From a virus (Duplodnaviria > Caudoviricetes), in the IMG/VR virus record IMGVR_UViG_3300025401_000648: a DNA stretch of 64,000 nt. One strand, given 5' to 3'. This document shows positions 2,470 through 60,892 of this stretch, piece by piece. The translations under genes were made by a program, and so were the position numbers. Within the stretch, counting starts at the first letter, position 1, and every line of letters begins with the position of its first letter. Under the pieces are notes generated by a model, which was given only the letters and a program-made list of their open reading frames with translations, was not told the origin of the DNA and did not search any database.

Positions 2470-2476
2470 ATAAATA
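2470..2476 (+). promoter_or_regulatory. T4-like late promoter ATAAATA
   Basis: Intergenic ATAAATA heading the 2521-10752 operon; same motif recurs before other late/structural genes. Confidence 0.55.
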
Positions 2477-2520: not shown

Positions 2521-2895
2521 ATGAAACTAATGGAATTTTTCGGCAAGCCCGTCGATATCAACAAAGAAATGTCCAAGGATCGTGAAGATTCTAAAATAGG
2601 TGATGATTTATTCTGGTTCATTGTCGATCATGATCGACTACACAAGGATTTCTTTCATCCTATTGCTGTAAAAATTCACCGAGCACAAAAATCTAATAAA
2701 CTAGATAAAGAAGAAATTGTCAAAGATTTTATGCCCATGGTTATTAAAGGGTGTAAAGAGTTTTTTAGAAAACATAAAATGCTAGGCAACATTAAAGAAA
2801 CTTTCCCCAAAGAACTACGCAAAGATGTTTGCGAAAAACTATTTGATCATTATCGTGAAGATATTATCAAAGGCAAATATAAGATAGGAATTTAA
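2521..2895 (+). CDS. Hypothetical protein with capsid-targeting-like N-terminus (MKLMEFF)
   Basis: 124-aa ORF directly upstream of 2897; N-terminus resembles those of neighbours. Confidence 0.7.
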   Translation: MKLMEFFGKPVDINKEMSKDREDSKIGDDLFWFIVDHDRLHKDFFHPIAVKIHRAQKSNKLDKEEIVKDFMPMVIKGCKEFFRKHKMLGNIKETFPKELRKDVCEKLFDHYREDIIKGKYKIGI

Positions 2896-2896
2896 T

Positions 2897-5800
2897 ATGT
2901 TTCTAAGAGATATTTTTAAACGTATAGTTGTTGAAGGTGGCAATTTAGAATTACCTAATCCTCAAAACGCCAACGAACCACATCGTGCTGATGAAATAGA
3001 TCTACAGGTTCACAACCGTAGTTTTATAGTTCCAATATTAGATAAACTATTAAAAGACATCAACAATTCATTTAAGGCCAAATATAAAACTCCTATTTGG
3101 AGTCAAGACCTTTTGACCAGCAAACAATTTTTAGGCGGCAGTAGTTTACATTTCTTCAATACCAAAGGCATCAACGATCAACAATTTACTGCCAAGAAGC
3201 CCAAGGTAGGTGATATCGATACGCAGTGCAATAAAGAACAAGAAGAACAAATAAAAGAATTTTTAACTGTTTATACAAATAAACAAATTGGTGACACAAC
3301 GTTATTGGGATTTAGCGCAGGCAATGAACAATTCAATGCCCTGTTTCAATTCCAAGATCCGCCAATGAAAATACAGGTTGATTTTGAGTTTGGCCGATAT
3401 AATCCAGAAACAAACACACCAGATGAGTGGTTTAGATTCAGTCATAATAGTGAATGGAATGATATTGATGCCGGTATCAAGGGAGTGTTCCACAAATATC
3501 TTTATAGATCTTTAAGTGGTATATCGTCACGTAGAGCATATATTGCCAAACTGGCAGGACGTGGTAAAGCACGTGCCATACAAATTTCTGATGAACCAGA
3601 AGAAGTTAACTTAATCTCTTTTGCTGTGGCAAGCAAACAAGGTGGTGGTGTTAGTCAAAAATATAAACCCTATATTGATCCAAATACCAATAAGCCCATG
3701 GTGAAAGATAATTTACCAGTATTGGAGCCAGTAGCGCCTGCTGATAGACAATATGAACAAAGATTAAGCAAACAATTTGAAATGTTTTTTGGCCGTGTTC
3801 CTACTCCTGAAGATTCTAAACTACAACAAAGTTTTTTAGGCACATTAGACTTAATTAACAGATATGTTGAAAATTCTAAAAAGGCAGGAATAGTTGAAGA
3901 TTTCTTAGATATTTGTTTTGAACAAGGTAGTCAAATGATTACCCGAGACGATCCTAAACGTGATGCTGAAACTAAATTTATAGCCATAGATGTAATGCTA
4001 GAAAAATTAGGCATGCGATCCATGCGCCCCAAGGCCATTGAAATGGCCAAGGCCTATGAGCAAGATTATAATGATGTCGAAGCATTTAAGAAAGCCAATC
4101 CAGGTGTATCACAACCACGTGCCGCGATGAAAAAAATGGCTGTTCGAGAAGCTGAAGGTGATGCCCCGGCAGTTAAAGCACAACTACGCAAAGGTATGCC
4201 TCACCTTCGTGATCTAAAACCTGCGGACTTTTTAGATCTAATCGATGAGTTACATGATGGCAATGGTAATTTTAAATTACAAAATATTCCATTAAATGTC
4301 AAAATAGATGGATTTGGTGGACGCTTTGGTAAAAACGCAGATGGTAAACCATTCATGGGCACTAGCCGTACTGAGCCACGTTACGAGCCAGGTTTTCTAA
4401 AGTATCATCAAGAAAAAGGCACAACTGATCCAGAAATATTGGGTCGCGCTCAATCTTTTGACAAGTTGTTTGATGAAATGATGAACGCTATTAAAGTAGT
4501 TGATAGTACTTTAGGTCCAGATTTTCTAAAAGATAGACAGGTCACCTGCGAGGTATTATTTTTACCATTTGCCACACAAACTGAAGAAGGCAAATTAAAA
4601 TTTGTAGGTATTGAATATGATCAACTGCCAAAAGGTGTTAATCTTGTGCTGGTACCTTTTCGCATTGTAGAAGGTAGTACAGGTGAGGACATACCTGACA
4701 GTGACAGAGTTATTCAAGAATTATCAAACTTAGGACAGAATGGTAGTGTGGCATTCATGAGCAACAGGCTGGTACAAAAACAAGGCTTGGATGTTACAGA
4801 AATTATCAACCCGTTAGACAACATTGAAGAATTAAAACAAATTGTCAGCGGAGCCGCAGGTAAACGAGACAAAGCCAGTTTACAACTGCGTAGAGAAGTT
4901 GAGGAAAAGTTAAAGCCTATACAAATAGCATTAGAAAAAGCCATTGATGAAGATCCTAACATTATTGGCAAAGACATGTTGGGGCAAGACTACGAGGGTA
5001 TTGTTATCAATAGTCGATTGGGACCAATCAAGGTCACAAGTCAACGCCAAAAAGATATTATCACCGCTAAGAATGCCGCTAAGAAAAATGCCCGTACAGA
5101 ACGCCCACGCAGTGAAAACAAAACAGCAGTAGTGGCCATTGGCAGTTTTGTTGGACATAAAGGCCATCAACAATTATTTGATTACACAATTAAGAAGGCC
5201 AAGGAATTGAATGGCGACCCGTATTTGTTTATGGGCAATGCTGTAGGAAAAGATGATCCAATTCCAGTCGCTGATAAAATTAAAACTTGGCAAATGCTGT
5301 ATCCACAATATGCCAACAATATCAGTGCTGTAACAATGGAAGGTGGAACACTCATGCAGAAAATCAAACATGAGTTAATCAATCCATTGCCAGGTAAACT
5401 GCCACGCTATGATAACATTATTATTATGGTTGGGGAAGATCAGGCCAAGATGCCAATAGCAGGCGCATTGATGAAAGCAGTTAATAAATTTCCAGGCTAT
5501 GAGAATGTCAAAGTTCATTTAGAAGTTACCCCGCGTGGAACTGGAATGAGTTTTACCAAATTACGTGATATTTTAAAAACAGGTAATCCTGATCAAGCAT
5601 TTCAATTATGGAATGATGCGTTTAACGGTGGTCAGTTTGGTGCCAAACAACTACCACCAGAATGGATACGACACCTAATGGATGTAACAAGGAACGGTAT
5701 GGGAATCAAAGAGCCACAAAAACAACAACCTGTTGCTGAACAGAGGTTGTTTAATTCGTTGTTGCGCCCACAAGTAAAGAAAGAAAAGCAAGGTGTGGCG

Positions 5801-6298
5801 GAGACTACAGGAGATAAACCGTTTGATAACATGATGAAAACTATTAAAACGGGTACAAAAAAACAAGCCACCGCAGATAGACGAGAACAAAAAAAGCAAG
5901 ATCAAGAAAGAACAAGAGCCGCTATTAGCAATATGTTTGGCAATAGTATGGATCACTTAAAAAATTTAAAAATTAAAGAGCGAAGTGTGGCAGAAAAGAT
6001 GATGCCTGCCGGTAATTTTTCTAGCACACCCAAAAACAAACTAGGCCCAGCAGGACAGCTAAAGGGCAAGATGAAGCGTCCAGCACGGGCAGGTGATCTA
6101 GTGGGTGGTGCTGAAGAAAGTTATGACGGCGGTAGTTATACCTCACACAAACCAGGATTTGGTGGACAAGGTAGATACACTGATTCTGTGAGAACACAGT
6201 TTAATATTGGTGAAAACAAACTAGTGCCTATTGGTGAAGATCTAGAATTAAAAATGGCCGAAGCTGTGTTAAAACTGATGGAAAATACCTTAAAATGA
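2897..6298 (+). CDS. Multidomain nucleotidyltransferase: Pol-beta-like NTase + ATP-dependent ligase-like adenylation domain + HIGH (cytidylyltransferase-like) domain
   Basis: GGSS...GDID...QVD (Pol-beta type); KIDG, TCEVLF, VPFRIV, YEGIVI, PIKV (ligase motifs I, III, IIIa, IV, V); GHKGH and SFTKLR (HIGH superfamily); basic tail with QGVAE. Confidence 0.65.
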   Translation: MFLRDIFKRIVVEGGNLELPNPQNANEPHRADEIDLQVHNRSFIVPILDKLLKDINNSFKAKYKTPIWSQDLLTSKQFLGGSSLHFFNTKGINDQQFTAKKPKVGDIDTQCNKEQEEQIKEFLTVYTNKQIGDTTLLGFSAGNEQFNALFQFQDPPMKIQVDFEFGRYNPETNTPDEWFRFSHNSEWNDIDAGIKGVFHKYLYRSLSGISSRRAYIAKLAGRGKARAIQISDEPEEVNLISFAVASKQGGGVSQKYKPYIDPNTNKPMVKDNLPVLEPVAPADRQYEQRLSKQFEMFFGRVPTPEDSKLQQSFLGTLDLINRYVENSKKAGIVEDFLDICFEQGSQMITRDDPKRDAETKFIAIDVMLEKLGMRSMRPKAIEMAKAYEQDYNDVEAFKKANPGVSQPRAAMKKMAVREAEGDAPAVKAQLRKGMPHLRDLKPADFLDLIDELHDGNGNFKLQNIPLNVKIDGFGGRFGKNADGKPFMGTSRTEPRYEPGFLKYHQEKGTTDPEILGRAQSFDKLFDEMMNAIKVVDSTLGPDFLKDRQVTCEVLFLPFATQTEEGKLKFVGIEYDQLPKGVNLVLVPFRIVEGSTGEDIPDSDRVIQELSNLGQNGSVAFMSNRLVQKQGLDVTEIINPLDNIEELKQIVSGAAGKRDKASLQLRREVEEKLKPIQIALEKAIDEDPNIIGKDMLGQDYEGIVINSRLGPIKVTSQRQKDIITAKNAAKKNARTERPRSENKTAVVAIGSFVGHKGHQQLFDYTIKKAKELNGDPYLFMGNAVGKDDPIPVADKIKTWQMLYPQYANNISAVTMEGGTLMQKIKHELINPLPGKLPRYDNIIIMVGEDQAKMPIAGALMKAVNKFPGYENVKVHLEVTPRGTGMSFTKLRDILKTGNPDQAFQLWNDAFNGGQFGAKQLPPEWIRHLMDVTRNGMGIKEPQKQQPVAEQRLFNSLLRPQVKKEKQGVAETTGDKPFDNMMKTIKTGTKKQATADRREQKKQDQERTRAAISNMFGNSMDHLKNLKIKERSVAEKMMPAGNFSSTPKNKLGPAGQLKGKMKRPARAGDLVGGAEESYDGGSYTSHKPGFGGQGRYTDSVRTQFNIGENKLVPIGEDLELKMAEAVLKLMENTLK

Positions 6299-6607: not shown

Positions 6608-6973
6608 ATGAGAGCAAAAGAATTTATCCGTGAATCATTAGGGTCACAAAACATGGCCAAGGATCAAGTGACTAGTATTCCTAATGCTCACTATTTTCCT
6701 GATTTGGATAACAGTAGTGGTTATGAAGCATATCGTTGGGGTGTGGCTTTGGCAGGTATGCCAGATTACCCAATGCCGCAAGATGGCACTACAGGACAAA
6801 AATTAGTTACAATTGGCTATACTGAAGCAGATGATTTAATTATAGACAGCACCAGTAAATTATTTGGTGCTAGAAAAGTAAGATTGACCCCACGCGGTAG
6901 TACAGAGTTGAAAGACACAAACAAAACTAGCCCCGTGGCTAATTGGATGGGAAAAGAGAAAAACAATGACTAA
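6608..6973 (+). CDS. Putative internal head protein (MRAKEFIRE leader)
   Basis: N-terminus resembles the T4 capsid-targeting sequence MKTYQEFIAE. Confidence 0.65.
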   Translation: MRAKEFIRESLGSQNMAKDQVTSIPNAHYFPDLDNSSGYEAYRWGVALAGMPDYPMPQDGTTGQKLVTIGYTEADDLIIDSTSKLFGARKVRLTPRGSTELKDTNKTSPVANWMGKEKNND

Positions 6974-9287
6974 CGAATTTAAAAAAATCTCCAAGGGTAC
7001 AGAAACCCGTTATATTCTAGAAAGCGAAACTGCTGGTGCCACTGGCAGTGGATCTATTGCCACTGTGCCAGGTGGTATGGGTGGTGTTCGTAAACGTGGC
7101 GGAAACTTGTTAGCTCAGGAAGGCAATAAAGAAAAAGTTCCTGCTACTAAGCCAAGAAACTTTGTGGCCAAGAATGCCAAGATGGGCGGTGCTGGCGCAC
7201 ACAAGGATAAGAAGAAGGCTGAGAAGCAGGGTGATGTAAAACATCGTAAACCATTTGCCGAACAAGGTGTGGCGGAAGGCTCCGGAGGCAATTGGTATAT
7301 TCGGGTCAACGGTAAAATCCTCAATGACACCAAGTATAAGCCAGAGATTTTCTCATCTGAGGACGAGGCAAGAAGTCACGCAATGAAACTTGCTGATAAG
7401 AAACGCATACCGTTGTCACAAATTAAATTAACAAAAAGTTGGATGGATGCTCCTGAGCAAGGTGTGGCGGAAGGCAGTATATCTGACTTATTGAATAAAG
7501 ATTCAGCATCACCAAAATTCAATGACCATCCAGCACCACTCAAAACAAAACATTCTGGTAGCATTCCAACGCCCTACGAAAAAGGTAGATTAGATGCTCA
7601 TAGAAAAAAGCCATATAACAATATCCACAAAGACAAGCAAGATGCGGAAGATTATAAAACTGGTTATGGGCACGTTAAATCTAAGCAAGGTGTGGCGGAA
7701 GGCTCGGGAAAGAATGTAGTCAAGTCAGTCAAGGTAGGAAACTTTAGACACGATTTGGTCAATACTGGAATGGGTTGGCAGGTTCGTATCTATAACGGTG
7801 ATGAACTTTATGATACTGGGTTGAGCAAGAACTCTGAAGAAAAAGGTTTAGCCGCATTGGATAACTCAGTGGCATACACTAAAAAGCAACTAAACATTAA
7901 AGAGCAAGGTGTGGCGGAAGGCGCTCCAGAACTATTGAAGAAAGAAATGCCACTACATCGTCATGCTGAAAAATTATTAGCACAAAATGGCGTCAGTAAA
8001 GATGATCCAGATTATCGCCATCATCTTGGTAACACGATAAAACATCTTCGTCAGTTTGGTAATATTGATTTGATTAACAAGAGTGACGAGCAAGGTGTGG
8101 CGGAAGAGTGGAGTCAAAAATATAAATCTAGTATCAACTGCTCACATCCAAAAGGTTTCTCACAAAAGGCTCACTGTGCAGGCAAGAAAAAGCACACGGA
8201 AAGTATGATGACAATGGAAGCAGTATGTCCTGATTGTGGTATGTGCCAAACACACGGCAACTTGAATGAGATCAAGAAAGGTGCTAAAGACAGTAATGGA
8301 TTTACCAAATGCTGGCCTGGACATCATGCGGCAGGTACTAAGAAAGGTAAGAACGGTGGACAAGTTCGTAACTGTGTGCCTAATGAAAGTTTGTCAGAAG
8401 GTTGGGGTATGGGCGGTTATGAAACTGCCAAGGTACAGCCAATTGAACCAGGCAAAGGCATTGATAAAGAAATAGGTGAAAATCCAGATTGGTACAATGA
8501 CGAAGCAAATAGCATGAGCACTGCTCAACTAAAGAGTTTGGTCAAACATGCTACTAAGCTCCGCCATGCTGTCAAACAAATGCAAGCACAAGGCGATACA
8601 TTAGAACCTTGGCAACAAAGCAAAGTTACCAAAGCCGCAGATTATTTAGATGCTGTATTCAATGCTGTAGATGACGAACATGACATGGACGAAGAGGAAG
8701 GAGCAGGCGGAATGTTAAGCCCTATATCAGAAGCTCCAATTGATATGGATCCGTCCGAACCAATGAATCCAATGATATACGGACATCAAGGTGTTAATCC
8801 TGCTAAACTAAAAGATCGAATGATGAGGGCCGCTGGTCAATTAAAAGATCTAGCACAAAGAGCAGAATCAGGAAGTGCGTTAGGCTGGGAAAGTATCACT
8901 CGTCACTTTGAAGAATTGGCAATGAACATTGAACAAATACGTCATGCTTTAGAAGAGCTGGCTAACAAACGTAAGAAAGGTGGCATTGGTTCAAGAGGTA
9001 TTGATCCACACATTGGCGAAAGTGATCATCCTGATGAAAAAGAAGATAAAGCACTTATTCGTAAAATGGTCAAGGCACAAGCATTGAAACAAGAAGACAG
9101 TTATATGGCTGAGCTACAGGCCAAACTAGCTGAAAAGATTCCCAAGAATGCTCCTGTAGATGTTTATATCAAAGATTTTGAAAAATCCAATGCTCCACAG
9201 TTCCGTGGTAAGACAAAGGAAAAACGTCGTCAAATGGCCATTGCCGCCAGTTACGGTGCTAAAAATCCTAGCAAGAAGAAAAAATGA
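6966..9287 (+). CDS. Modular Lys-rich putative internal head polyprotein with five QGVAE(G/E) repeats
   Basis: 773 aa; unrelated 56-70-aa modules separated by QGVAEG; further [ILV]-x-E sites (LNE, LSE, ISE, IGE) between later modules; CPDCGMCQTH putative metal site. Confidence 0.7.
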   Translation: MTNEFKKISKGTETRYILESETAGATGSGSIATVPGGMGGVRKRGGNLLAQEGNKEKVPATKPRNFVAKNAKMGGAGAHKDKKKAEKQGDVKHRKPFAEQGVAEGSGGNWYIRVNGKILNDTKYKPEIFSSEDEARSHAMKLADKKRIPLSQIKLTKSWMDAPEQGVAEGSISDLLNKDSASPKFNDHPAPLKTKHSGSIPTPYEKGRLDAHRKKPYNNIHKDKQDAEDYKTGYGHVKSKQGVAEGSGKNVVKSVKVGNFRHDLVNTGMGWQVRIYNGDELYDTGLSKNSEEKGLAALDNSVAYTKKQLNIKEQGVAEGAPELLKKEMPLHRHAEKLLAQNGVSKDDPDYRHHLGNTIKHLRQFGNIDLINKSDEQGVAEEWSQKYKSSINCSHPKGFSQKAHCAGKKKHTESMMTMEAVCPDCGMCQTHGNLNEIKKGAKDSNGFTKCWPGHHAAGTKKGKNGGQVRNCVPNESLSEGWGMGGYETAKVQPIEPGKGIDKEIGENPDWYNDEANSMSTAQLKSLVKHATKLRHAVKQMQAQGDTLEPWQQSKVTKAADYLDAVFNAVDDEHDMDEEEGAGGMLSPISEAPIDMDPSEPMNPMIYGHQGVNPAKLKDRMMRAAGQLKDLAQRAESGSALGWESITRHFEELAMNIEQIRHALEELANKRKKGGIGSRGIDPHIGESDHPDEKEDKALIRKMVKAQALKQEDSYMAELQAKLAEKIPKNAPVDVYIKDFEKSNAPQFRGKTKEKRRQMAIAASYGAKNPSKKKK

Positions 9288-11501: not shown

Positions 11502-11523
11502 AACCCGCTTAGGCGGGTTTTTT
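11502..11523 (+). terminator. Rho-independent terminator between convergent genes
   Basis: AACCCGC-TTAG-GCGGGTT followed by a T run. Confidence 0.85.
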
Positions 11524-12583
11524 ATTGACTTTTGTAGTCTCGGTATCGTTGTCCGGACACTTCGCCTGAGAATAATTTTTTAACATATTCCAGACCTTTG
11601 GTCAATGCGTCTCTATCTTTGACAGCGCGGGCTTGACTGGCATCTGTACTAGCCTTGTCACGTTTGGGCGCAGTGATAGCATGTTGCGATTTTTCTACAT
11701 AGTGATTGGCAAATTGATTAATAAAGTCATCGGCAGAACTGAATCGTTCCAAATCACCCTTACCAAACATTCCATTTAATTCACAGCTACGAGCAAACCC
11801 CTTAACACCATTAACCAAACGTTCTACATTAACATTCATTGTGTCAACACCAGGATTGGCCTTTAGTAGTGGATCAATCTTGGGATTTTCTATTCCAAGT
11901 TCTTCTGCCTCATGTAGGAATATGTCTAATACCCAGCGTTTGATATCTTGCCCTACTGTGTGTAGGTTGTAATTCTTAAGCGTCTTGCCATAATTAACTT
12001 TTTTTCCATTTACAGTTTTGTATTGGATGCCCTTGTGCTGCAGGTTAACTGGAATCAATTCGCTCATTGTGGCAAAGATATTACCGTTTAGTAAACCTTT
12101 TAATCCATGTTCTCCTGTGGCACGATAACGGCCCCATTCGGCAGTCTTTTCTGGATGCGGCATAATATCTACTTGTACCTTACTACCATCACCCAATATG
12201 AACATGGGCTGTGCTCCTCGACTTTCAGCTTTATCAATATAGGATAAATTTGAATCTTGAATAAATTTATTGATTAATGTGCCCCAGCGACCCTGAACTT
12301 GCCCACTGGTCATATCATCATATTCTGGTAAATCTGGAATAATAACCTGTAGATCCATGTCACCATATATGGTGTTTTCTGGATCATCGAGTTCATGATA
12401 AGCGGCGGATCCTGTGGGATGACCAACTTTCATAGGTCCAAGCCCCTGTTGTTTTAACCAAGGATTGAAATCTTTAAGGAAATTATCTACTGCAACAATT
12501 CCCTGTTTTACCACTTTGGCTTTGATGCCAGGATTATCTCCGGTGGTCCACCCGCCTTCAACAATTAATTCTCTAATTTTCAT
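11522..12583 (-). CDS. Pol-beta-superfamily nucleotidyltransferase with capsid-targeting-like leader
   Basis: Start at ATG 12583 (MKIRELIVEGG); TGS...GDMD...QVD motifs; paralogous to the N-domain of the 2897 protein. Confidence 0.65.
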   Translation of the reverse strand: MKIRELIVEGGWTTGDNPGIKAKVVKQGIVAVDNFLKDFNPWLKQQGLGPMKVGHPTGSAAYHELDDPENTIYGDMDLQVIIPDLPEYDDMTSGQVQGRWGTLINKFIQDSNLSYIDKAESRGAQPMFILGDGSKVQVDIMPHPEKTAEWGRYRATGEHGLKGLLNGNIFATMSELIPVNLQHKGIQYKTVNGKKVNYGKTLKNYNLHTVGQDIKRWVLDIFLHEAEELGIENPKIDPLLKANPGVDTMNVNVERLVNGVKGFARSCELNGMFGKGDLERFSSADDFINQFANHYVEKSQHAITAPKRDKASTDASQARAVKDRDALTKGLEYVKKLFSGEVSGQRYRDYKSQ

Positions 12584-12590
12584 AGTAAAG

Positions 12591-12597
12591 TATTTAT
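12591..12597 (-). promoter_or_regulatory. T4-like late promoter ATAAATA
   Basis: 7 nt upstream of ATG 12583 on the minus strand. Confidence 0.6.
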
Positions 12598-12606
12598 TCA
12601 AAACAG

Positions 12607-25029: not shown

Positions 25030-25249
25030 TTCAATTAAAAATACATATAAAGAAATGGTCATTAAAGAAGATTCAGGATTTCGACTGGTGTTGAAGAAAC
25101 ATGAAGTGTTGAGTCCTAAAGGTCTTTTTAGTGTTAATTTAGAACAACAAAATTTACGAGATGGTGAAATCTCAGATGTTTCAACATATAACTTCTTTAT
25201 GACCAAAGAAGAAATTCAAGCACTAGCACATGGATTAACACATGAGTAA
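25019..25249 (+). CDS. Hypothetical protein
   Basis: 76-aa ORF with SD AAGGAG. Confidence 0.65.
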   Translation: MLHDSIKNTYKEMVIKEDSGFRLVLKKHEVLSPKGLFSVNLEQQNLRDGEISDVSTYNFFMTKEEIQALAHGLTHE

Positions 25250-26093
25250 GATTAAAATAGCAGAACTATTTTATAGTATACAGGGAGAAGGACGTTATAT
25301 GGGCGTACCAAGTATCTTCTTAAGGACTTTCGGCTGCAATTTCCGCTGTGCAGGATTTGGTATGCCTAAAGGGCAATTGAGCGCAGAAGCAGAAGACATT
25401 GCCACCGTAGTGCATTTATATAACAAATATGAAGATTTGCCGCTAGTATCAACTGGTTGTGATAGTTATGCTAGTTGGCATCCTGATTTTAAAAACCTAA
25501 GTCCTATGTTGACTACGGATGCTATTGTTGAACGCATCATGGAGATATTGCCCTTCAATGAGTGGCGCAATGAACATCTTGTTATCACAGGTGGTGAACC
25601 GCTATTAGGTTGGCAACGTGCTTATCCTGACCTGTTGGATCATCCTAAAATGTCTAAACTAAAAGAAATTACATTTGAAACAAATGGTACTCAAAAGTTA
25701 ACACAAGATTTTAAAAATTATCTTGGAGTATGGAATGGCTTACCTAGGCAAAAACGAGAAATTACATTCAGTGTAAGTGCTAAGTTGCCAGCAAGTGGTG
25801 AAAAGTGGGAAGAAGCTATTCTTCCAGAAGTTGTTTGTGAATATGAAGAAGTAGGCACAGCATATCTTAAATTTGTGGTAGCCACAGAAGAGGACGTTAA
25901 AGATGCAGAACAAGCAATTGAACAATATAGAGCGGCTGGCTTTAAAGGTCACATATATCTTATGCCTGTTGGCGGTGTTGAGTCTGTTTACAATCTCAAT
26001 GCTAAATCCGTTGCCCTTGCCGCAATGAAACGCGGCCTACGTTATAGTGATCGACTACAAGTGCCCTTGTTCAAGAACGAGTGGGGCACTTGA
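25242..26093 (+). CDS. queE: 7-carboxy-7-deazaguanine synthase (radical SAM)
   Basis: ELFYSIQGEG, FLRTFGCNFRC...GCDS, ITGGEP, FETNGT, SDRLQ; Cys motif is CX3CX36C. Confidence 0.85.
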   Translation: MSKIKIAELFYSIQGEGRYMGVPSIFLRTFGCNFRCAGFGMPKGQLSAEAEDIATVVHLYNKYEDLPLVSTGCDSYASWHPDFKNLSPMLTTDAIVERIMEILPFNEWRNEHLVITGGEPLLGWQRAYPDLLDHPKMSKLKEITFETNGTQKLTQDFKNYLGVWNGLPRQKREITFSVSAKLPASGEKWEEAILPEVVCEYEEVGTAYLKFVVATEEDVKDAEQAIEQYRAAGFKGHIYLMPVGGVESVYNLNAKSVALAAMKRGLRYSDRLQVPLFKNEWGT

Positions 26094-40187: not shown

Positions 40188-41465
40188 TTAGTGTTTAAAT
40201 CGTGTATTGGATCTCGGAAATGTCTGCCCTTGATTAGGTCGAATACTAGACTGTCTTGGAAATGTCATACCTTGGTTTGATCGAAGACTTTGAATAAGAC
40301 TCAGTAAAGAATACCCGTTTGGCGCTCCCATACCTGTAACAGGATCCCAACCAACTCGTGATGCGTATCCTTGGGCTATGGCTGTGGCATTGGTACCTGT
40401 AGTGATATCGTAAAATGCAGTTGGATTGGCATAAAACAGTTGATTGTATGCTACTGATCCCAATGCTTTACCAGTTAATGCCTTGATTCTAGCTATCATG
40501 CCTGCCATAACAGGAGTGGATGCGCTAGTACCACCAACACCGCTTAGAGTTCCGCTAGTATAAAACGCATAGGCGTTGGCCATTGGACCAGAAATGTCTG
40601 GAATACCCCTCGCAGTCACAGATGTTAATGCTCCGGTAACGTGAGTCGAACTATTATATGTTTGATATTGTAGCCCACTTTGCCAGCTAGGAGCTGAAAA
40701 TATTGAACTAAATCCGCCGCCACTACCAAAAGTACTACCAAAAGTAGAGTCGTCTTGTTCGGTTGTTTCTGTTAAACGAGTATTGGTTCCTGTGTTTATG
40801 GTAAGATGAGTCCCACCAACAGCAATCATATAGGGACTAGACGGCGGATAGTTGACTGCCAATACATTTCCCGAATCAGAACCAAGGTCTCCCGAACTGT
40901 TTACAAAAGCAATATTATTGGAATTAGCTGATTGTAGCTGTGATGATAAAAAATCTCCACCAGATTCACTGAATGTCCAACTCATTGATATTACATCACA
41001 CCCATCAGAAACAGCTCTAGCAATAGTACTTCGAACATTAGCCACTGTAGTAGAACTGGTGTTTATGTAAATGGTAATATTGGCCTGAGGGACTAATGTG
41101 GCAATACATGTGATATCTAATATATTTTCTCCGTCAGCATTGCTGTCACTAGTGCCAGTTGCGCCATTTAACAATACCTGCGTTATAGTTGGTGCTGATA
41201 CTGATGCTGGAAGAATACCCCTTGTTTTATAATCTGAAAATGTTGAATTAAGATCGCTTTGAAGGAAAGTTCCACCAAAACTAATAATTCCAACCTTAAT
41301 ACCTGCTCCAGAATGATACGGCATATTATATGCTGTAGCAATTTGAGGGGGTGTAAGATATACATAATTACCACTATAATAGTAGCCAGTATTTGTGTGT
41401 ACTGATTCATCAATTGGCGTTACAGTTAAATCCGCAAGCTGGGCGACTATTTGTTCATCAGACAT
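40188..41465 (-). CDS. Sedolisin/kumamolisin-family (S53) serine-carboxyl peptidase, catalytic domain only
   Basis: ENILD (Glu/Asp pair), SSGDLG (oxyanion Asp), AVGGT, RGIPDI, GGTSASTP (Ser), GWDPVTGMG (Ca site). Confidence 0.9.
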   Translation of the reverse strand: MSDEQIVAQLADLTVTPIDESVHTNTGYYYSGNYVYLTPPQIATAYNMPYHSGAGIKVGIISFGGTFLQSDLNSTFSDYKTRGILPASVSAPTITQVLLNGATGTSDSNADGENILDITCIATLVPQANITIYINTSSTTVANVRSTIARAVSDGCDVISMSWTFSESGGDFLSSQLQSANSNNIAFVNSSGDLGSDSGNVLAVNYPPSSPYMIAVGGTHLTINTGTNTRLTETTEQDDSTFGSTFGSGGGFSSIFSAPSWQSGLQYQTYNSSTHVTGALTSVTARGIPDISGPMANAYAFYTSGTLSGVGGTSASTPVMAGMIARIKALTGKALGSVAYNQLFYANPTAFYDITTGTNATAIAQGYASRVGWDPVTGMGAPNGYSLLSLIQSLRSNQGMTFPRQSSIRPNQGQTFPRSNTRFKH

Positions 41466-44400
41466 TATTGTTCTAATCCTAATAGTGTTAATGTTACATT
41501 AACTGCTGACGAACTTCCAGAGTTATTTGTAACTGCCAGATAGACTGTACTATTTGTTATAGTATCATTATTAAATCCAACAACTCCTGGGGTAATTAAT
41601 TGTGTTAACGATCCAGAAGTTGTAATAACATCTGCTATCACTCCAGATCCTGCTGTAGGATCAGTACTTTGATTTCTAGAACTGTCATTGGATAAACTAG
41701 TTGCGTCAGTATAGATTCTAACCCATGCTGGCTGATCAGTTACAACTTTTGACAACACATAAGATTTGTATCCTAATACGATAGTTGTAGCAGTAGTTCC
41801 TGCCGCTAAAACGCTGGTTGCTGTTGTAACTGTTACTCTAGTACCTGCTCCTGCTGATCCAGAATAACCTACTGGTCCAACACTACCAGCATAGCCTATT
41901 GGACCACTGACTGTGCTTGCTGATCCAGTATAACCTGTTGCTCCAGCGCTGCCAGCGTAGCCTAAGCCACTTGATCCAGTATAACCTGTAGTCCCAATGC
42001 TTCCAGTGTATCCACCTGGGTCACCTTTGCTACCTGTAAATCCAATAGAAGCATAAGCACCCTGAGATCCAGAATAACCACGTGGTCCTTGTACCGTACT
42101 TGCTGATCCAGTATATCCACCAGCATCGCCTTTACTTCCAGCAAACCCCTGTGTACCAAAACTACCAGTAAATCCTGTTATACCTTGACTACCAGCATAA
42201 CCAACTGATCCCCAATAGCCAACGCTGCCAGCGTAACCTTGACTACCAGAATACCCCAATCCGCCAATTGATCCTGAATAGCCCTGTGGTCCAATACTTC
42301 CAGCATAGCCAGTACTGCCAGCATAGCCATTTTTGCCAACTACCCCGCTTAATATAAATTGCCAACTTGTAAATGTTCCAGATCCGTAGACTGAATAAAC
42401 TTGGGTAGTTACTGTTGTTCCAGTAATACTGGTAATGATACTTGAAATATAATTAGCAGGATTAACTACTCCGCCTGGAGAGGACAATAATACTATAGAT
42501 TGACTTGTGGTATACGCTGATAATGCAATGTTGGTAGCAGTAAAGCTGAATGTGGTTCCAGGAGAAACAAGAGCAATATTAGTTGCCGTACTTGTTGCTG
42601 TGGTAACAAGGAATCCTAATCCTATACTGCCAGTATATCCCACTGATCCAGAATATCCTTGGCTACCAGTAAAACCAGTAACGCCAAAGCTGCCAGTAAA
42701 ACCGGTAATGCCTTGGCTACCTGTGTAGCCAACACTTCCCCAATAACCAGCACTTCCCCAATAGCCAACGCTACCAGTGTAACCTTGACTACCAGTATAT
42801 CCACCTGGATTACCTTGAGCACCAACACTACCAGTATACCCGATTTGGCTTGCCGCACCAATTGACCCAGAGAATCCTCTACTACCCGTAAATCCATTAG
42901 GACCCTGTGGGCCACTTACGTTACTAGCAGAGCCAGTATAACCAACACTACCAGTATACCCTAAGCTACCGCTGTATCCCAATGGACCGCTTACGCTACT
43001 AGCGGATCCAGTATAACCTTGCGGACCTTGCGGACCAAAACTGCCTGTAAAGCCAGTTGATCCTGAATAGCCTGTTGGGCCAATTACATTACTAGCAGAT
43101 CCAGTATAACCTTGTGGGCCCACACTGCCAGTAAAACCAACTGATCCAGTATAGCCCAACGGTCCACTCACACTACTAGCAGACCCAGTAAAACCCTGTG
43201 GACCAATGCTACCTGTATAGCCCAAGCTACCAGCATATCCTTGACTACCAGCATATCCCTGTGGTCCTTGCGGGCCTACAGAACCAGTATATCCGCCAGC
43301 ATCACCTTTACTTCCACTAAACCCTTGGAAACCCTGTGGTCCAGATACAGTACTTGCTGATCCAGTATAGCCAATACTTCCGCTGTAGCCTAAACTACCT
43401 GTATAGCCCTGTGGTCCTTGAGCCCCAACCGAACCAGTATAACCTCCTGGTGGTCCTTGTGGGCCAGTTGGTCCAGGTACTTCACTGACACTACCTGTAA
43501 ATCCAGTTTTACCAATATTACCAACACTACCTGTGTATCCTCTAGGACCTTGCGGACCGCTTACATTACTGGCTGAACCAGTATAGCCGCCTGGAGGTCC
43601 TTGCGGGCCTGGAACAGAACTTGCTGATCCAGTAAAACCAATAGATCCAACACTGCCTGTATACCCTAAATTTCCAATACTACCACTGTAGCCAATACGA
43701 CCAACACTACCAGTATATCCGGAGGCACCTATACTGCCTGTATAACCACCCGGAGTTCCTGGAGCACCAGCACTGCCTGTATAGCCGCCTGGGTCACCTT
43801 TACTACCCGTGTAGCCAATTCCCACATTAGAAATGTTGATTACACCGTTCATGCTAGGCAAATTATTAGTTTGATATGCTAGAGTATCAGGAGCGTTCAT
43901 TGGCACACTAAATGTTACTGTACCAACCGTTGCTCCATTATTTGTTACTCCAGTAGTGTATGGGGCACTATTATTGTCAGTATAATGGTCAACTATGTAA
44001 AAACCATGACTTGGGCTATTAACAGTAAAATAATAAGTGAATCCACGGGCTAGATTAATAATGTTGGTATTAAGGCCATTGATTAAAAAACTGCCCAATC
44101 CACTATCTGTTATAGAAATATAAAGTCCTGCTAATTGCCCGGCACTACCAGTGTATCCTTTACTGCCAGTAAATCCAAAACTACCGTTATATCCAATAAC
44201 TCCTGCGCTACCAGCATATCCTGTACTGCCAGTATATCCCTTGCTACCAGCAAAACCATTTGATCCAGCACTACCAGCATACCCGGTGCTACCAAAATAA
44301 CCAATTGCCCCACTACTTCCAGTATATCCAACAGGACCTTGTGGTCCCACGCTTCCTGCAAATCCAACACTGGCACTGCCTGCGTACCCTTGAGATCCTG

Positions 44401-44527
44401 CGTAGCCAGTAAAACTATTTGGTAAATTACCAAAATTGAATCTCTTGGTAATTTGATTGTCAACTACTACAAAATAAGTTTCGTTTGTGGCAGTTGTCAA
44501 TAATGGTAATGTGGTAATTTGTGGCAT
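41465..44527 (-). CDS. Collagen-like Gly-X-Y fibre protein with G[YF][TAS]GSx hexads
   Basis: Start at ATG 44527 (SD AAGGA); long Gly-X-Y runs interrupted by two beta-rich inserts; S/T/V-rich C-domain. Confidence 0.8.
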   Translation of the reverse strand: MPQITTLPLLTTATNETYFVVVDNQITKRFNFGNLPNSFTGYAGSQGYAGSASVGFAGSVGPQGPVGYTGSSGAIGYFGSTGYAGSAGSNGFAGSKGYTGSTGYAGSAGVIGYNGSFGFTGSKGYTGSAGQLAGLYISITDSGLGSFLINGLNTNIINLARGFTYYFTVNSPSHGFYIVDHYTDNNSAPYTTGVTNNGATVGTVTFSVPMNAPDTLAYQTNNLPSMNGVINISNVGIGYTGSKGDPGGYTGSAGAPGTPGGYTGSIGASGYTGSVGRIGYSGSIGNLGYTGSVGSIGFTGSASSVPGPQGPPGGYTGSASNVSGPQGPRGYTGSVGNIGKTGFTGSVSEVPGPTGPQGPPGGYTGSVGAQGPQGYTGSLGYSGSIGYTGSASTVSGPQGFQGFSGSKGDAGGYTGSVGPQGPQGYAGSQGYAGSLGYTGSIGPQGFTGSASSVSGPLGYTGSVGFTGSVGPQGYTGSASNVIGPTGYSGSTGFTGSFGPQGPQGYTGSASSVSGPLGYSGSLGYTGSVGYTGSASNVSGPQGPNGFTGSRGFSGSIGAASQIGYTGSVGAQGNPGGYTGSQGYTGSVGYWGSAGYWGSVGYTGSQGITGFTGSFGVTGFTGSQGYSGSVGYTGSIGLGFLVTTATSTATNIALVSPGTTFSFTATNIALSAYTTSQSIVLLSSPGGVVNPANYISSIITSITGTTVTTQVYSVYGSGTFTSWQFILSGVVGKNGYAGSTGYAGSIGPQGYSGSIGGLGYSGSQGYAGSVGYWGSVGYAGSQGITGFTGSFGTQGFAGSKGDAGGYTGSASTVQGPRGYSGSQGAYASIGFTGSKGDPGGYTGSIGTTGYTGSSGLGYAGSAGATGYTGSASTVSGPIGYAGSVGPVGYSGSAGAGTRVTVTTATSVLAAGTTATTIVLGYKSYVLSKVVTDQPAWVRIYTDATSLSNDSSRNQSTDPTAGSGVIADVITTSGSLTQLITPGVVGFNNDTITNSTVYLAVTNNSGSSSAVNVTLTLLGLEQ
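41845..44415 (-). repeat. Degenerate 18-bp (hexapeptide) coding repeats
   Basis: Dozens of GYTGS/GFTGS/GYAGS units and recurring GPQG and GGYTGS blocks; coordinates approximate. Confidence 0.9.
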
Positions 44528-44528
44528 T

Positions 44529-47500
44529 TTATAATCCTTCAATCGGGTTATTATTTTGATCTGTTAAGACAAATCCTGTTTCAGTTGTTATATCAGGATC
44601 TCCACCGCTGTAGTAGCTATTTGGCAATACAGCTGGTCGAGCTTGTATAAATTTAGCCTGTTCAGTAGTACTATCCAATAATGAAACGCCATTGTTCCAT
44701 AATGTGGTATCCGAGAATTCTTTCTTAATAATAACCAATTTAATGTTGTCCCCTACTCCTTGTAGTGTATTTAACGTAATTTGTTGACTGACTGGACTTA
44801 CAAAGGTCAAGGGCCAAGCTATGGTGGCTGCCTGAGCAAGTCCAAATCCCCATCCATTAAATAGACTGTTATGCCCTGCCGAAATAATGGGATACTTGGC
44901 GCCGTTAGCATCAATCAATGTCCATCCTGCAGCTATCTGCTGAGTGGAGGTGTTTTGAGACAACACCCACCCTGAACCATTAGGTGGTTGGGCACCAAGT
45001 ACATCTACTGCGATAGCCCCAACGGTTATCTGCGTAGCAGTGATACTGAACTCAGGCGGCAAATAGTTTAAACCAGTATAGACATACCCGTTTACAGCAT
45101 CGGCTGCTATTGAATTTGTATAAATCCAGACTTTGTTAGTAGATGTAACAATATATGCTGTGTTTATTACTGTAGTTGAAGGCAACAATGATTCTGTAGA
45201 AACAGATCCAGTAATTTTAAATGTTGGACTATCATATGATAAAGTTGTATCTTGATAATATGTACCAACTTTATTCAACTGATATCCGCCATAATAAACT
45301 TGTACTTGATCCATAGCTGGTATTCCTGAAGATAAAGTTATACCATCCCCAGTCGCCGTACTAGCAGTGGTCAAAATAGTATATGTGGCAGTTGTACTGG
45401 TTGTATATAATGTTTGTGTATAAATGCTTTCATTAAATGGTATTGTTTGACTTGGACTTTGATCAATAACTGTGGTATAAATGTCTGAATAAGTCTTAGG
45501 ACTTGTGCCCAATGTTGATCTACGCAACTGACTTAATACATTTCCAGTGATTGTAAAGAACTCAATGCGCTCACCAGCAATCATTACAACTCCTGGAATT
45601 TTCTTGGATGGTATAGCAGGAGTCAGCACACTAGTATCATTAACATGAATTTCAGTATCTGTTAAGTTTAACGGTTGAGTTAGGTATGTGGAATTTTTAG
45701 CAGATATACGTTTGAATGAAGTTCTATTGAATATATCATTAAAAATTCTGTAACCCAACACAGTGGATGCCAATGTGTGATTGGCAATATATGTTATCAC
45801 AATCGTATTAGCCACACCAATCAAATACTTGTCGCTGATTTGTATTGTAACTCCATCACTCAAAATTTGATAGTCTACATTATTAACTAGCGGCACTCCA
45901 TCTAACACCAACCACAAATAGTTTGTGTTTAAAGGAGGAGCAGTGATCTTAAATTGGTTGGATATTGTGCCCTTAAATCGTTCTGTTCTCAACAACATTC
46001 CATCTTGATCAGTGTATGTTATAACTCTAATAGTAGTTCCAAGTGTGGGACTTGACAATATTAAATTAGATCCTTCAATATTAAAATCGTATCCATCCCC
46101 CGGTTGTTGATACAAATCAACCACCGCAACCACATCACCGTCTGAAACACCACTATAGCTAATGGTTATTGTATTGACTAAATTGTCAACTATGAAATCA
46201 AATCCACCACTTAGTTTAATGCCGTTGACGTAGACTTCTACACTGTTATTGGCTATGGCATATACCCCAGTTGGTCTTGGTCTACTGTTATTAATTTTAA
46301 ATGTTAAATTACCGTTGGTCACTGTGTAATAACTTACATAAGGTCCTACCAATTGTCTTGAATTTTGTTGAACTATGACATTTGACACTGCTGGTCCAAT
46401 ATTTCCAGGAGCTGGATTTAACGCATAGGTATTTACGGCGCCATCTGTAATTGTAATGAATTGATCTGTTATTTCATTGAAATAGTTGTGAGCAGATGTA
46501 AAGAACCATGCCTGAATAGTATTTGTCCCTGGAGGTAAATTGTAAACGGTCACTGCCGCACGAGTATCAGCCCCGTCAACAACTGGCCCTAATACATAAC
46601 CATAACCTGTAGAAGTAGTTTGTAGGGACACTGATGATCCATTAACTGTGACAAATGCGCTGTTGATAGATCCAAATTCAAAATTACAATATACTTGAGC
46701 ATTAGATACATCTGTTACTGTAACAGAATTATATGCCACAACCCCAGCATCATTACCACTTCCGCCGCCTACACTGATAATTGTATATCCAATTATTGCA
46801 CTATAATTTACGTATACACTTAATTGACTGGTTGCCCAATCAATGCTAAATTGTCCAGGTGTTAAATTAGTAGATGTGGTATATGAGTATACTTGCTGGA
46901 ATCCGTCAGTGACCGTTATACTTGCTGTTGTAGTTGGTAAAATAGGCAAGGTAATTGTACCGGTAGTACCACCAACAATATTAAAATTTCCACTGACAAC
47001 TATTGGAGCACCTGACGGTGTTTTGGTATAAACATTAATCCCAAGACTATCACTCGACCCACCTGCTACCAATTCTTCCGGAGCATAGCTATCATCAGGA
47101 TTTAAAAAGCCACTACCAACTCTCGCAGTGCTGGTAGATCCGCCATCAATAATAATGTCACTTGGATTGACACCTAATGCGCCAGTTAGTATAGCCGCGT
47201 TTGTCCCAGTCCAAGTTCCGCCATCAATTGATGTATCAAGTAGGGCGGAATTAGAACCCACATTCCAAAATTCAATAACTGTTCCAGGTGGGATCGCCGA
47301 AGTTAATGTGCTACTAAATGTCACCACTGTGCCTGTGACTGCTGTCACTGTTACATCAGTTGAATAAAACACATTAGTAATTGTACTAATAATATTTGCG
47401 TATTGCCCAACTAATGTAGCCGATGCTGAGTACAATGAAATATTATTTGTTCCTGCAGTTGCTGTGGAGGTTGATGTAGTCTTGCTATAGTATTCAATGT

Positions 47501-60400: not shown

Positions 60401-60868
60401 AAATTGGTTATACCAATTTGAATTTGTGGAATCATTCCAGCCTATAGTAATATTGCTGAGATTATTGCCCAACGCATCAAACACACTGTCTGTGGTAGAA
60501 ATAGCAGACATTTTTAGTAAACCATTAGCTGGTACATTCCTAGTTGGTACGTAGCTGATCAATTGAGCCAGTCTTAAAATACTGTCTCTACGTGTCGCAG
60601 TTTCTAAAAAGTTTTCACGGGCATTTAGGTCAATACGGAAACTTAGATTTTGACCTAGGTAAGCAATTAAATCCACTAGGGCAATGTATTCACTACTATC
60701 AATGAAGTCGTTGAAGTCTTCAGGAAAATTTTCTTGAAGATACGCAATCATTATTCTACGCAGTGTTTCAAAATCATAGCTTTGGAACTCTGCGTTAGGG
60801 AAAGATTGATAGATTTTTTTCCAATCTTCTGTAACTAGATACTGTGAATTAGTTGCTGGAATTGTCAT
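57422..60868 (-). CDS. gp6: Baseplate wedge protein, T4 gp6-like
   Basis: DFETLR...LIAYLGQNLSFRIDLNARENFLETATRRDSILRLAQLISY; VTGEDY. Confidence 0.8.
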   Translation of the reverse strand: MTIPATNSQYLVTEDWKKIYQSFPNAEFQSYDFETLRRIMIAYLQENFPEDFNDFIDSSEYIALVDLIAYLGQNLSFRIDLNARENFLETATRRDSILRLAQLISYVPTRNVPANGLLKMSAISTTDSVFDALGNNLSNITIGWNDSTNSNWYNQFITILNNSFNAPHGFGTPSDQNTIGGILVQQYTINSSNQDVPVFSFTQNINGTPMIFEIVSTTFSGKTYIYEEPPEPGNSFSIIYQNDNQGNASANTGFFSHFRQGSLSSSNFSITAPVPNEIIGVNITDINNTDVWLWQKGLNGQYQTLWTQVPALTGNNVIYNSLNASTRNFYSVSTRNGDQIDLNFSDGSFGNLPTGDFGLFYRQSNGLTYTISPSQMTGVSVRIPYVNQAGQSQTLTITYSLEYTVSNSQGTESNASIQTNAPQTYYTQNRMVTGEDYNIAPLNVSSEILKVKSVARVTSGVSKYFELSDVSGKYSSTNIFADDGILYKNLTQNSFDFTFNSQNDIYTIIQNRLTPIIASSTMRSFYLDQYPRPDLTQSGVSWVQVTKSSGQSTGYFTNTSTYVATAVGGFSNSNLAYIVSGALIKFVPPAGQYFLPNGTLINKKTSTTVDYIWSLVSQVIGDGSNNGTGALSTGVGPITMNNVVPSTATPVEIIPVFVNSFSNSFITEIVNLCLIQRNFGLSFDSINRVWNIIADSNLNLVSPFSLEYQNNISNANLDSSWLVAFSWNGTSYTVQYRQTDYVFESAQQTGFFIDSNNINYDFTTNTVIKDKITVLSVNTLNTTSSVALGTDYLWQVDGTITQSDGYVEPRQVVVSFYDYNNSGQIVDPDAFEKIVATTSTNEITGWEDKFVYFKLQSDGLTYELVDSSMFTAYPNPAAAIVAINSGTITPSTGDLFYFYDSDYNVINSYSTSTANINNPWLYDTTASTYIAYPGRSGIKFQYVHNTGQDTRIDPSKSNIIDIYMLTSDYDIAFRNWLLTGNGTEPLPPTSVALENNYSSSLEPIKTISDQIIYQPVKYKVLFGAFADLNLQATFKAVQSPTSTLSVNNIKSQILAAINKFFALENWDFGQSFHFSELSTYVMNLLTPDITNFVIVPVNPNNNFGSLYEVACQNNEIFVSGATAANIQVISAITASQLDTKSIITSAGN

Positions 60869-60885: not shown

Positions 60886-60892
60886 TATTTAT
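60886..60892 (-). promoter_or_regulatory. Late promoter ATAAATA
   Basis: Intergenic, 17 nt upstream of the gp6-like ATG. Confidence 0.55.

Follow-up and report, generated by a model that had tools for sequence, protein, structure and literature searches.

Packaged and injected phage enzymes act before phage gene expression, and the T4 examples, IPI and Alt, are textbook but few. The DNA analysed here (the window) is a 64,000-nucleotide stretch of the IMG/VR virus record IMGVR_UViG_3300025401_000648, and the gene in question, at positions 2897-6298 of the plus strand, encodes a predicted 1133-aa protein, P0001, in which a putative capsid-targeting leader is followed by a Pol-beta-superfamily nucleotidyltransferase domain (N), an RNA-ligase-type adenylyltransferase domain (M), a nucleotidyltransferase domain of the HIGH superfamily (C) and a variable tail. 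In T4, the capsid-targeting sequence (CTS) of IPIII has 10 residues with processing determinants at positions 8 and 10, processing is carried out by gp21, and Alt is processed at both ends (PMC9026906). Like T4 IPI-III and Alt, the P0001 family has a short N-terminal leader that ends in h-x-E and is optional across homologues (PMC9026906); a gp21-type protease occurs in the lineage, neighbouring genes carry the tag, a tagged homologue is present in virions and, as with Alt, the cargo is enzymatic. What sets the P0001 cargo apart is that it is probably one polyprotein of 1133 aa comprising three nucleotidyltransferases, where T4 packages small basic proteins or an ADP-ribosyltransferase, and that it has internal linker sites and shuffled tail modules, with cleavage and ejection here predicted.

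RNA repair that pairs a Pol-beta nucleotidyltransferase with an RNA ligase is already established, RlaP being the example (PMC7824862); RlaP adds one or two nucleotides to damaged RNA 3' ends (PMC12776372). The RlaP (PF10127) and RNA ligase modules of bacteria and jumbo phages resemble P0001 in coupling a Pol-beta nucleotidyltransferase to an ATP-type RNA-ligase fold (PMC12776372, PMC7824862). Unlike these modules, P0001 has an N domain that is PolX-like with a thumb and does not have PF10127 among the best 25 of 36 families matched, an M domain outside PF09414 and PF09511, an obligatory third partner of the HIGH type and a capsid tag. M shares the adenylyltransferase fold and motifs I, III, IV and V with NgrRnl (Rnl5) of Naegleria, REL1 of T. 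brucei and T4 Rnl2 (Z 9.2-10.6 over 180-204 residues; these and all Z values given below come from structural comparison of AlphaFold2 models with PDB entries). Its identity to them is 12-13%. Neither the OB-like domain found N-terminally in NgrRnl nor the C-terminal domain of Rnl2 is present in M, which carries a C-terminal HIGH domain instead; its motif V has a single Lys, and an insertion of about 120 residues separates motifs IIIa and IV. With PolX of African swine fever virus (ASFV) and the ligase-PolX fusions of nucleocytoplasmic large DNA viruses, N has in common the palm-plus-thumb topology, the GS/DxD/D catalytic set and the viral pairing with a ligase, but it is not a sequence-level member of that group, it carries an extra beta-rich subdomain as well as a helical bundle at the C-terminus, and its partner is RNA-ligase-like without an OB domain.

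As described by Iyer et al. 2017 (PMC5512222), polyvalent proteins likewise hold unrelated enzymatic domains in one chain predicted to be packaged and injected, with variable terminal modules. In contrast to these, no MuF, portal, zincin MPTase or ArdC-N hub was seen in Pfam scans of P0001 and ten homologue segments (8 tails and 2 N-terminal extensions), the N/M/C core is a fixed, co-inherited set rather than a free combination, and N, M and C are not among the domains given in the part of that survey consulted (PMC5512222).

Architecture and extent of the family

The features of the gene are as follows, a slash marking each predicted cut.

2897-6298, plus strand: whole ORF (open reading frame), P0001, predicted polyprotein precursor, single uninterrupted frame of 1133 aa
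2897-2935, plus strand: leader (aa 1-13), putative capsid-targeting propeptide, MFLRDIFKRIVVE, ending in V-V-E directly before GGN
2936-4150, plus strand: N domain (aa 14-418), PolX-like palm and thumb, with G81-S82, D106, D108 and D162; phrog_19290, 7e-24
4142-4150, plus strand: V416-R-E418, protease-like site in the N/M linker (VRE/AEG), conserved [LIVM]xE
4151-5092, plus strand: M domain (aa 419-732), covalent lysyl-AMP-type adenylyltransferase, with motif I K469-I-D-G, motif III E552, motif IV E700-G701 and motif V K712
5093-5737, plus strand: C domain (aa 733-947), HIGH nucleotidyltransferase, with G753-H-K-G-H757 and S885-F-T-K-L-R890; phrog_3041, 2.5e-11
5726-5803, plus strand: post-C linker (aa 944-969), PVAE947/QRLFNSLLRPQVKKEKQGVAE969/TTG, with two h-x-E sites
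5804-6295, plus strand: variable basic tail (aa 970-1133), 18 kDa, pI 9.8, shuffled small modules, ending in LVPIGEDLELKMAEAVLKLMENTLK

Relatives of P0001 number 661 in a word-index search, many of them 55-93% identical across >80% of the length, and when representatives clustered at 50% identity were searched exhaustively, 1034 clusters matched at E<=1e-3 and 178 at E<=1e-30. DNA nearly identical to 2897-6298 occurs in many metagenomes from lakes and fresh water, and the gene is not an assembly oddity. The source appears to be a large freshwater T4-related phage, and the family appears to belong to uncultured freshwater T4-related jumbo phages. Among the cultured phages of INPHARED no fusion was found, megablast giving 0 matches and tblastn only partial, split relatives; the gene is also absent from the nearest related record, G001, which is 27% complete. 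The query and its retrieved homologues, 268 proteins altogether, comprise 154 with the N-M-C architecture, 55 with N only, 8 with N-M and 8 with M-C. No Pfam model scores above threshold for N, M or C, and sequence-only searches of the PDB, run with the whole of P0001 and with a profile of each domain, were unproductive, the sole match being the HxGH of RibF at E 1e-3. The PHROGs matches are phrog_19290 and phrog_12709, both unknown, and phrog_3041 ('cytidyltransferase').

The first-pass annotation of this DNA had proposed that three different nucleotidyl-transfer chemistries are fused in one putatively virion-packaged protein, and structure prediction together with invariant catalytic residues bears out three different nucleotidyl-transfer folds in one frame. 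All of the motifs that it quoted lie at the residues given for them: GGSS at 80-83, GDID at 105-108 and QVD at 160-162 in N; KIDG at 469-472, TCEVLF at 550, PFRIV at 587, EGIVI at 700 and PIK at 710-712 in M; HKGH at 754-757 and SFTKLR at 885-890 in C. TCEVLF and PFRIV are present but not conserved as whole strings, and only E552 (motif III) is invariant in TCEVLF. Because the catalytic positions are invariant across diverged homologues, the motifs exceed chance. Among the sequences and literature searched, this architecture has no characterised counterpart, as had been supposed. To speak of three chemistries in a single protein is right for the precursor, and the mature state is probably one plus two.

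Fused and split forms of the triad

The three domains also occur as separate neighbouring genes. In Xanthomonas phage BUDD the gene order is N, an unrelated ORF, M and a PF01467 HIGH nucleotidyltransferase that overlaps the end of M, and the order is the same in Stenotrophomonas phage Ps15, where the first gene matches the N profile with 99.6% probability and the last is annotated as NMNAT. In a third locus, L083 (Logan contig SRR9952630_681655, 4511-6773), N-like, M and HIGH genes lie back to back with 1-nt overlaps. Since N, M and HIGH are fused, and since their gene order is kept in unrelated phages, there is strong evidence at the level of gene organisation that the three act in one pathway. 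The ORF between N and M was considered as a fourth component and rejected; it belongs to no family, and the BUDD and Ps15 ORFs are unrelated to each other.

An RNA-repair phosphatase of the HAD_SAK_2 family (86.7 bits) lies 1.2 kb from the split triad of L083, and a further NTP_transf_2 protein joins it within 5 kb downstream of the triad. Both BUDD and Ps15 have a QueE-like radical-SAM gene close to the split triad, the window has one at 25242-26093, and in Campylobacter Firehammervirus (CP220, locus L086, and IBB_35, locus L088) the N homologue lies directly downstream of a radical-SAM gene.

Folds of the three domains

For these comparisons P0001 was cut into N (1-420), M (425-732), C (733-950) and tail (951-1133). 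The AlphaFold2 model of N has a predicted local distance difference test (pLDDT) score of 94.5 and a predicted template modelling (pTM) score of 0.90, and in a search of 48,161 PDB representatives its top matches are Pol-beta-superfamily enzymes only. The highest score is that of Pol mu, with Z 8.1 and 178 residues aligned; pol beta, TdT, pol lambda and ASFV PolX reach Z 6.6-7.5 over 164-182 residues, and TUT7, TUT1 and Trf4 reach Z about 7 (about 7.4 for TUT7 and TUT1) over 99-113 residues, all within the "middling" range by the tool's own scale. G81, S82, D106, D108, Q160, D162, E164, K195 and K200 are invariant columns among 53 sequences of 27-53% identity. Because the modelled fold and the catalytic residues agree, the placement of N in the Pol-beta superfamily is secure; its assignment to a family within the superfamily is not. 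An ESM-Atlas shape search outside the family itself returned DUF6267, followed by PolX proteins with palm and thumb (TM 0.62-0.66 by row), and the neighbours include giant-virus ligase-PolX fusions; no mention of DUF6267 was found in the literature searched. When the 53 N members were scanned with hmmscan at E<=1, 36 families were matched, the top-ranked one in 2 members only, and the best 25 of the 36 include neither RlaP PF10127 nor the PolyA_pol/CCA models nor the PolX models PF14792 (palm) and PF14791 (thumb). A relationship of N to CCA-adding enzymes, raised in the first-pass annotation, thus finds no support: the nearest folds are PolX and the terminal uridylyltransferases (TUTases), and no CCA family is among those best 25 of 36.

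The M domain has ligase motifs I, III, IIIa, IV and V in order, as covalent nucleotidyltransferases do, and K469, D471, G472, E552, F569/Y574, E700, G701, K712 and T714 are invariant columns in 22 sequences. In the M+C model (pLDDT 89.3), M superposes on NgrRnl (5cot) with Z 10.6 over 191 residues, on REL1 with Z 10.0 over 204 residues and on T4 Rnl2 with Z 9.2, and on DNA ligases with Z 8-9.4; Foldseek also matches it to RNA ligases. In Pfam scans PF09414 matched 1 of the 22 M members (E 0.073) and PF09511 none of the 22. The ligase alignments stop at about model residue 300, and beyond motif V the model has a single helix leading into the Rossmann fold of C, so that M+C shows no OB-fold domain after motif V of the kind seen in DNA ligases and mRNA capping enzymes. 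To our knowledge all DNA ligases and capping enzymes carry an OB domain, and its absence from the model argues against M being either.

In the C domain H754-x-G-H757 and T887-x-x-R890 are conserved on a Rossmann-like fold, as in HIGH nucleotidyltransferases, and the invariant columns are G753, H754, G756, H757, D848 and R890 (14 sequences). The modelled domain superposes on PPAT with Z 13.2 over 151 of 161 residues, on NadM with Z 12.3, on NMNAT with Z 11.6 and on NadD with Z 11.5, and Foldseek matches it to the FMNAT module of FAD synthetase (E 6e-5). FAD_syn is a sub-threshold match in 14 of 14 C members, and PF01467 matches none of the 14 at E<=1. On the model, PPAT, NMNAT and FMNAT are structurally tied, and the fold does not reveal the second substrate. 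An NMNAT role for C, which had been put forward as a route to NAD+ resupply, is not assigned, given this tie. Related phages already have separate NadV and NMNAT-like genes. These phages encode NadV beside a 340-aa PF01467 protein, together with 1-2 more HIGH nucleotidyltransferases, so an extra NMNAT is not obviously needed, and the case for NAD+ resupply by C is weakened. Of five related IMG/VR records, 2 contain NAMPT and 2 an AAA_33 kinase, neither of which adjoins the gene.

The leader and proposed virion packaging

The start is intact in 221 N-domain proteins. Of these, 172 carry a leader no longer than 25 residues with [LIVMFT]-x-E immediately before GGN, and a further 15 have a longer N-terminal module with h-x-E likewise before GGN, bringing those with h-x-E to 187. 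Another 27 begin M-GGN, and since these homologues begin exactly there, the leader is an optional add-on that is dispensable for the fold; the motif at its end is the one at which the T4 head protease cleaves. MFLRDIFKRIVVE/GGN and the family-wide pattern together show the features of a T4-type CTS, namely a propeptide of about 10 aa, an h-x-E end and putative removability. In L083 the three genes of the split triad start with MLSFKDFLALSE, MLTFKTFLGE and MNSFKQYLQE, which is one 10-12-aa MxSFKxFLxE tag on three unrelated folds. ORFs of the window start with MKLMEFFGK, MFLRDIFKRIVVE/GG, MRAKEFIRE, MKIVELINE, MKIRELVEA and MKIRELIVE/GG, and a common MK..E[FL]..E leader is found in several of the neighbours.

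The product of gene 1-56 of Campylobacter phage vB_CcoM-IBB_35 was detected in purified virions by ESI-MS/MS (electrospray tandem mass spectrometry) as a protein of 44,446 Da with 17% coverage (PMC3322345 supplement). This gene is a homologue of N (hhalign probability 100%, E 1e-58, 354 columns), and its leader is MKLSELMFILE/GGN. Of 5 related phage records, all incomplete, 3 encode a gp21-type protease (PF03420). The proposal that the protein is packaged in the virion therefore has comparative support from the leader pattern and the L083 tags, and experimental support for the IBB_35 homologue only; P0001 is probably injected together with the phage DNA.

Predicted processing and the variable tail

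In the full-length alignment, [LIVM]xE occurs at a conserved place in the N/M linker of 157 of 158 fusions (VRE/AEG, GLTE/AEE and QGVTE/AEE), as compared with 1 of 158 for the M/C linker and 75-79 of 158 (about 50%) for control windows of equal length. Because [LIV]xE is a common tripeptide, only this position-specific conservation carries weight. Stand-alone M and M-C proteins start just after the predicted N/M cut, some with a leader of their own, and in the homologue P0003 a small cassette is inserted between two h-x-E sites of the N/M linker. The conservation of these sites suggests that cleavage may occur at h-x-E, and the difference between the two linkers makes N and a two-domain ligase-HIGH enzyme the likely products. 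P0001 is thus probably a polyprotein rather than a three-headed mature enzyme, as judged from its sequence and those of its homologues. Downstream of C, P[VIL][AS]E is found in 55 of 158 homologues, and PVAE is for this reason taken as a sub-clade feature; the same is true of the C-terminal helix motif LVPIGEDLELKMAEAVLKLMENTLK of the tail, which 27 of 158 homologues have and which is not family-wide.

The tails vary between homologues and their modules are reused, the last 107 aa of P0001 also occurring as a stand-alone protein, P0203. Above-threshold domains in the tails of homologues are HD_4 (a SpoT/RelA-type hydrolase, 64 bits), Amidoligase_2 and DUF6934; NTP_transf_2 (a fourth, minimal Pol-beta nucleotidyltransferase) and, in one tail, ParB_N are sub-threshold. 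Homologues with extra modules include P0013 and P0072, both in the tail, P0166 and P0167, and P0144. QGVAE at aa 965-969 of P0001 is a linker repeated in a 773-aa ORF of the window, and the related QG[LV]xE/A occurs in the N/M linkers of many homologues. From these recurrences, modules appear to be exchanged at QGVAE-type sites, the P0003 cassette being an example. The 773-aa ORF itself (6966-9287, plus strand) consists of small modules separated by QGVAEG linkers.

Proposed function and alternative explanations

Building on three folds with conserved catalytic residues, on a triad that is either fused or operonic, on the pattern of leaders and on the one homologue in virions, the reading tentatively favoured here, to which we give somewhat less than an even chance, is that a late-made, capsid-targeted polyprotein yields injected N and ligase-HIGH enzymes for RNA or tRNA end repair. 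The 13-residue T4-type leader would load the polyprotein into the prohead core, and a gp21-type head protease would cut off the leader behind E13, with further cuts after E418 and at E947 and/or E969. The products would be a 46-kDa PolX-like Pol-beta nucleotidyltransferase, a 59-61-kDa two-domain enzyme made of the RNA-ligase-like adenylyltransferase and the HIGH nucleotidyltransferase, and small basic tail modules, all of which would be ejected into the cell with the DNA. There the N enzyme may add nucleotides to damaged 3'-OH ends, and the ligase domain may rejoin 3'-OH and 5'-phosphate ends by way of a K469-AMP intermediate, with RNA, and tRNA in particular, as the most likely substrate. 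Because the HIGH domain is never separated from the ligase, it probably serves ligation; it could, for instance, produce an adenylylated cofactor or intermediate, or recycle one. Such a ready-made kit would let the phage survive tRNA-cutting host defences before phage translation. PrrC/RloC- or SIR2-type defences, named in the first-pass annotation, are conjectural targets. RNA or tRNA end repair is our best guess because preloading makes sense against defences that stop translation, and it is in line with the nick-sealing RNA ligases as best matches of M, the HAD_SAK_2 gene near the L083 triad and the HD_4 domain in some tails.

Several observations weigh against this proposal. The gene adjoins replication genes, not head genes. 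The virion detection concerns a distant stand-alone N homologue (25% identity), not P0001 or the M-C part. The [LIV]xE tripeptide occurs 21 times in P0001. The N fold is as near to family X DNA polymerases as to the RNA-specific TUTases, N is not RlaP or CCA-adding by sequence (among the best 25 of 36 families), and DNA ligases score only about 1-2 Z units below RNA ligases for M. No polynucleotide kinase/phosphatase, KptA or HAD_SAK_2 is present near the fused gene or in the five related IMG/VR records. These records (46-65% complete) also showed no Rnl2, Rnl1, KptA/Tpt1 or HAD_SAK_2, but they are fragmentary and two of the families had silent controls, so that these negatives do not show the genes to be missing.

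PolX and ligase of ASFV act in base-excision repair. An analogous DNA repair kit for the incoming phage genome, in which PolX-like N would fill short gaps and the ligase would seal nicks, is unlikely, even though the longest N alignments are to the family X enzymes Pol mu, beta, lambda, TdT and ASFV PolX (164-182 residues, Z 6.6-8.1), a minimal viral PolX is covered almost fully (TM 0.62-0.66), giant viruses have ligase-PolX fusions, M reaches Z 8-9.4 with DNA ligases and the gene lies near the DNA polymerase gene and a deazaguanine operon; against it, M has no OB domain and finds its best matches in RNA ligases, N has neither an 8-kDa lyase nor an HhH domain, the best 25 of 36 families include no PolX Pfam model, and the obligatory HIGH partner has no role in known DNA repair. 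It is also improbable that the domains are independent injected effectors in the style of polyvalent proteins, N nucleotidylating a host protein or small molecule, HIGH restoring NAD+/FAD/CoA-type cofactors when host defences deplete them and the ligase acting separately. The unrelated modules in homologue tails (HD_4, Amidoligase_2 and DUF6934, with NTP_transf_2 and ParB_N below threshold) would fit this, since varied modules are typical of injected polyvalent proteins (PMC5512222), and so would the tie of the C fold with NMNAT (Z 11.5-12.3) and an N-like fold inside a ParB/Srx polyvalent protein. However, the order N, M, HIGH is kept not only in the fusions but also in three independent split loci, where stop and start codons overlap, a protease-like site between M and HIGH is almost never found (1 of 158), and the related phages already have NadV, the adjacent 340-aa PF01467 protein and the 1-2 more HIGH nucleotidyltransferases.

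P0001 might instead be an ordinary cytoplasmic multi-domain enzyme that is not packaged, the conserved E-GGN being merely part of the fold, as the ClpB-like and replication genes next to it and the leaderless BUDD, Ps15 and Vibrio Va1 relatives would allow. This is quite unlikely, because the 27 homologues that begin at M-GGN show that the fold needs neither the Glu nor the leader, the same tag stands on three unrelated folds in L083, the tagged IBB_35 homologue is in virions, and several ORFs of the window have MK..E[FL]..E leaders. Formation of a 5'-5' adenylyl pyrophosphate linkage on 5'-phosphate RNA is the same chemistry as NMN -> NAD+, and we give a small chance, slighter again, to the idea that the HIGH domain makes AppRNA on 5'-phosphate RNA or regenerates NAD+ from NMN for an NAD+-using RNA ligase, with the OB-less domain sealing the break. 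If this were true, translation-independent tRNA repair, completed by the PolX-like end-extender and injected from the capsids of abundant freshwater jumbo phages, would be a general counter to abortive infection by anticodon nucleases and NADases.

Under the favoured proposal of a packaged end-repair polyprotein, a very widespread freshwater T4-related family appears to load into its head three nucleotidyl-transfer enzymes, none of which belongs to a curated family. If end repair of RNA or DNA is indeed their role, phages can carry ready-made repair enzymes against translation-blocking defences, and preloading would bypass the inability to translate a repair enzyme once tRNAs are cut. The fixed ligase-HIGH pairing points to undescribed enzymology, and the cultured split-gene relatives (Xanthomonas phages BUDD and X1, Stenotrophomonas phages Ps15 and YB07, and Campylobacter Firehammervirus) make the system testable.

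Putative expression signals and neighbouring genes

Three further features of the window bear on the gene.

2470-2476, plus strand: ATAAATA, resembling a late promoter, 44 nt ahead of the unit formed by the genes 2521-2895 and 2897-6298
2521-2895, plus strand: 124-aa ORF that ends 1 nt before the start of the main ORF, with a CTS-like N-terminus, MKLMEFFGK, and no family match
11522-12583, minus strand (11522-12601 with the annotated TTG extension): putative distant stand-alone Pol-beta-type paralogue with the leader MKIRELIVE/GG and GDMD, VQVD, EW and GLKG motifs

ATAAATA is four-fold depleted in the window, with 8 copies observed as compared with 32 +/- 6 expected, at 2011, 2470, 28511 and 31701 on the plus strand and at 12591, 40169, 60886 and 61366 on the minus strand. 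All eight copies lie 4-44 nt upstream of a correctly oriented ORF start, including those of baseplate genes at 60886 and 61366, and the motif may serve as a promoter. Its position just upstream of this operon and of two baseplate genes fits late expression. For some copies, the distance to the ATG leaves no room for a normal leader carrying a Shine-Dalgarno sequence. The full T4 late promoter, TATAAATA, was considered and set aside, as it is not enriched (1 copy in the window as compared with 8.5 expected); exclusively upstream placement is seen with the 7-mer alone.

The match of the paralogue at 11522-12601 to the N profile is weak (hhalign E 0.078), and for that reason it is the motifs that carry the paralogy. 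It is the only minus-strand gene in the first 33 kb, with ATAAATA 7 nt before its ATG. A DNA polymerase gene and a deazaguanine operon lie near the 2897-6298 gene, and the phage DNA is probably modified with 7-deazaguanine.

A ClpB/ClpA-like double-AAA+ ATPase is encoded at 17-1993 on the plus strand (AAA_2, AAA_lid_9 and ClpB_D2-small; phrog_4871, E 2e-236), directly upstream of the putative head-cargo genes; according to a review of jumbo phages, such chaperones may help load heads with proteins (PMC7824862). A 4296-aa ORF (44529-57419, minus strand), presumably a giant baseplate or fibre protein, has the gene for a gp6-like baseplate wedge (57422-60868) on one side and that for a collagen-like tail fibre (41465-44542) on the other.

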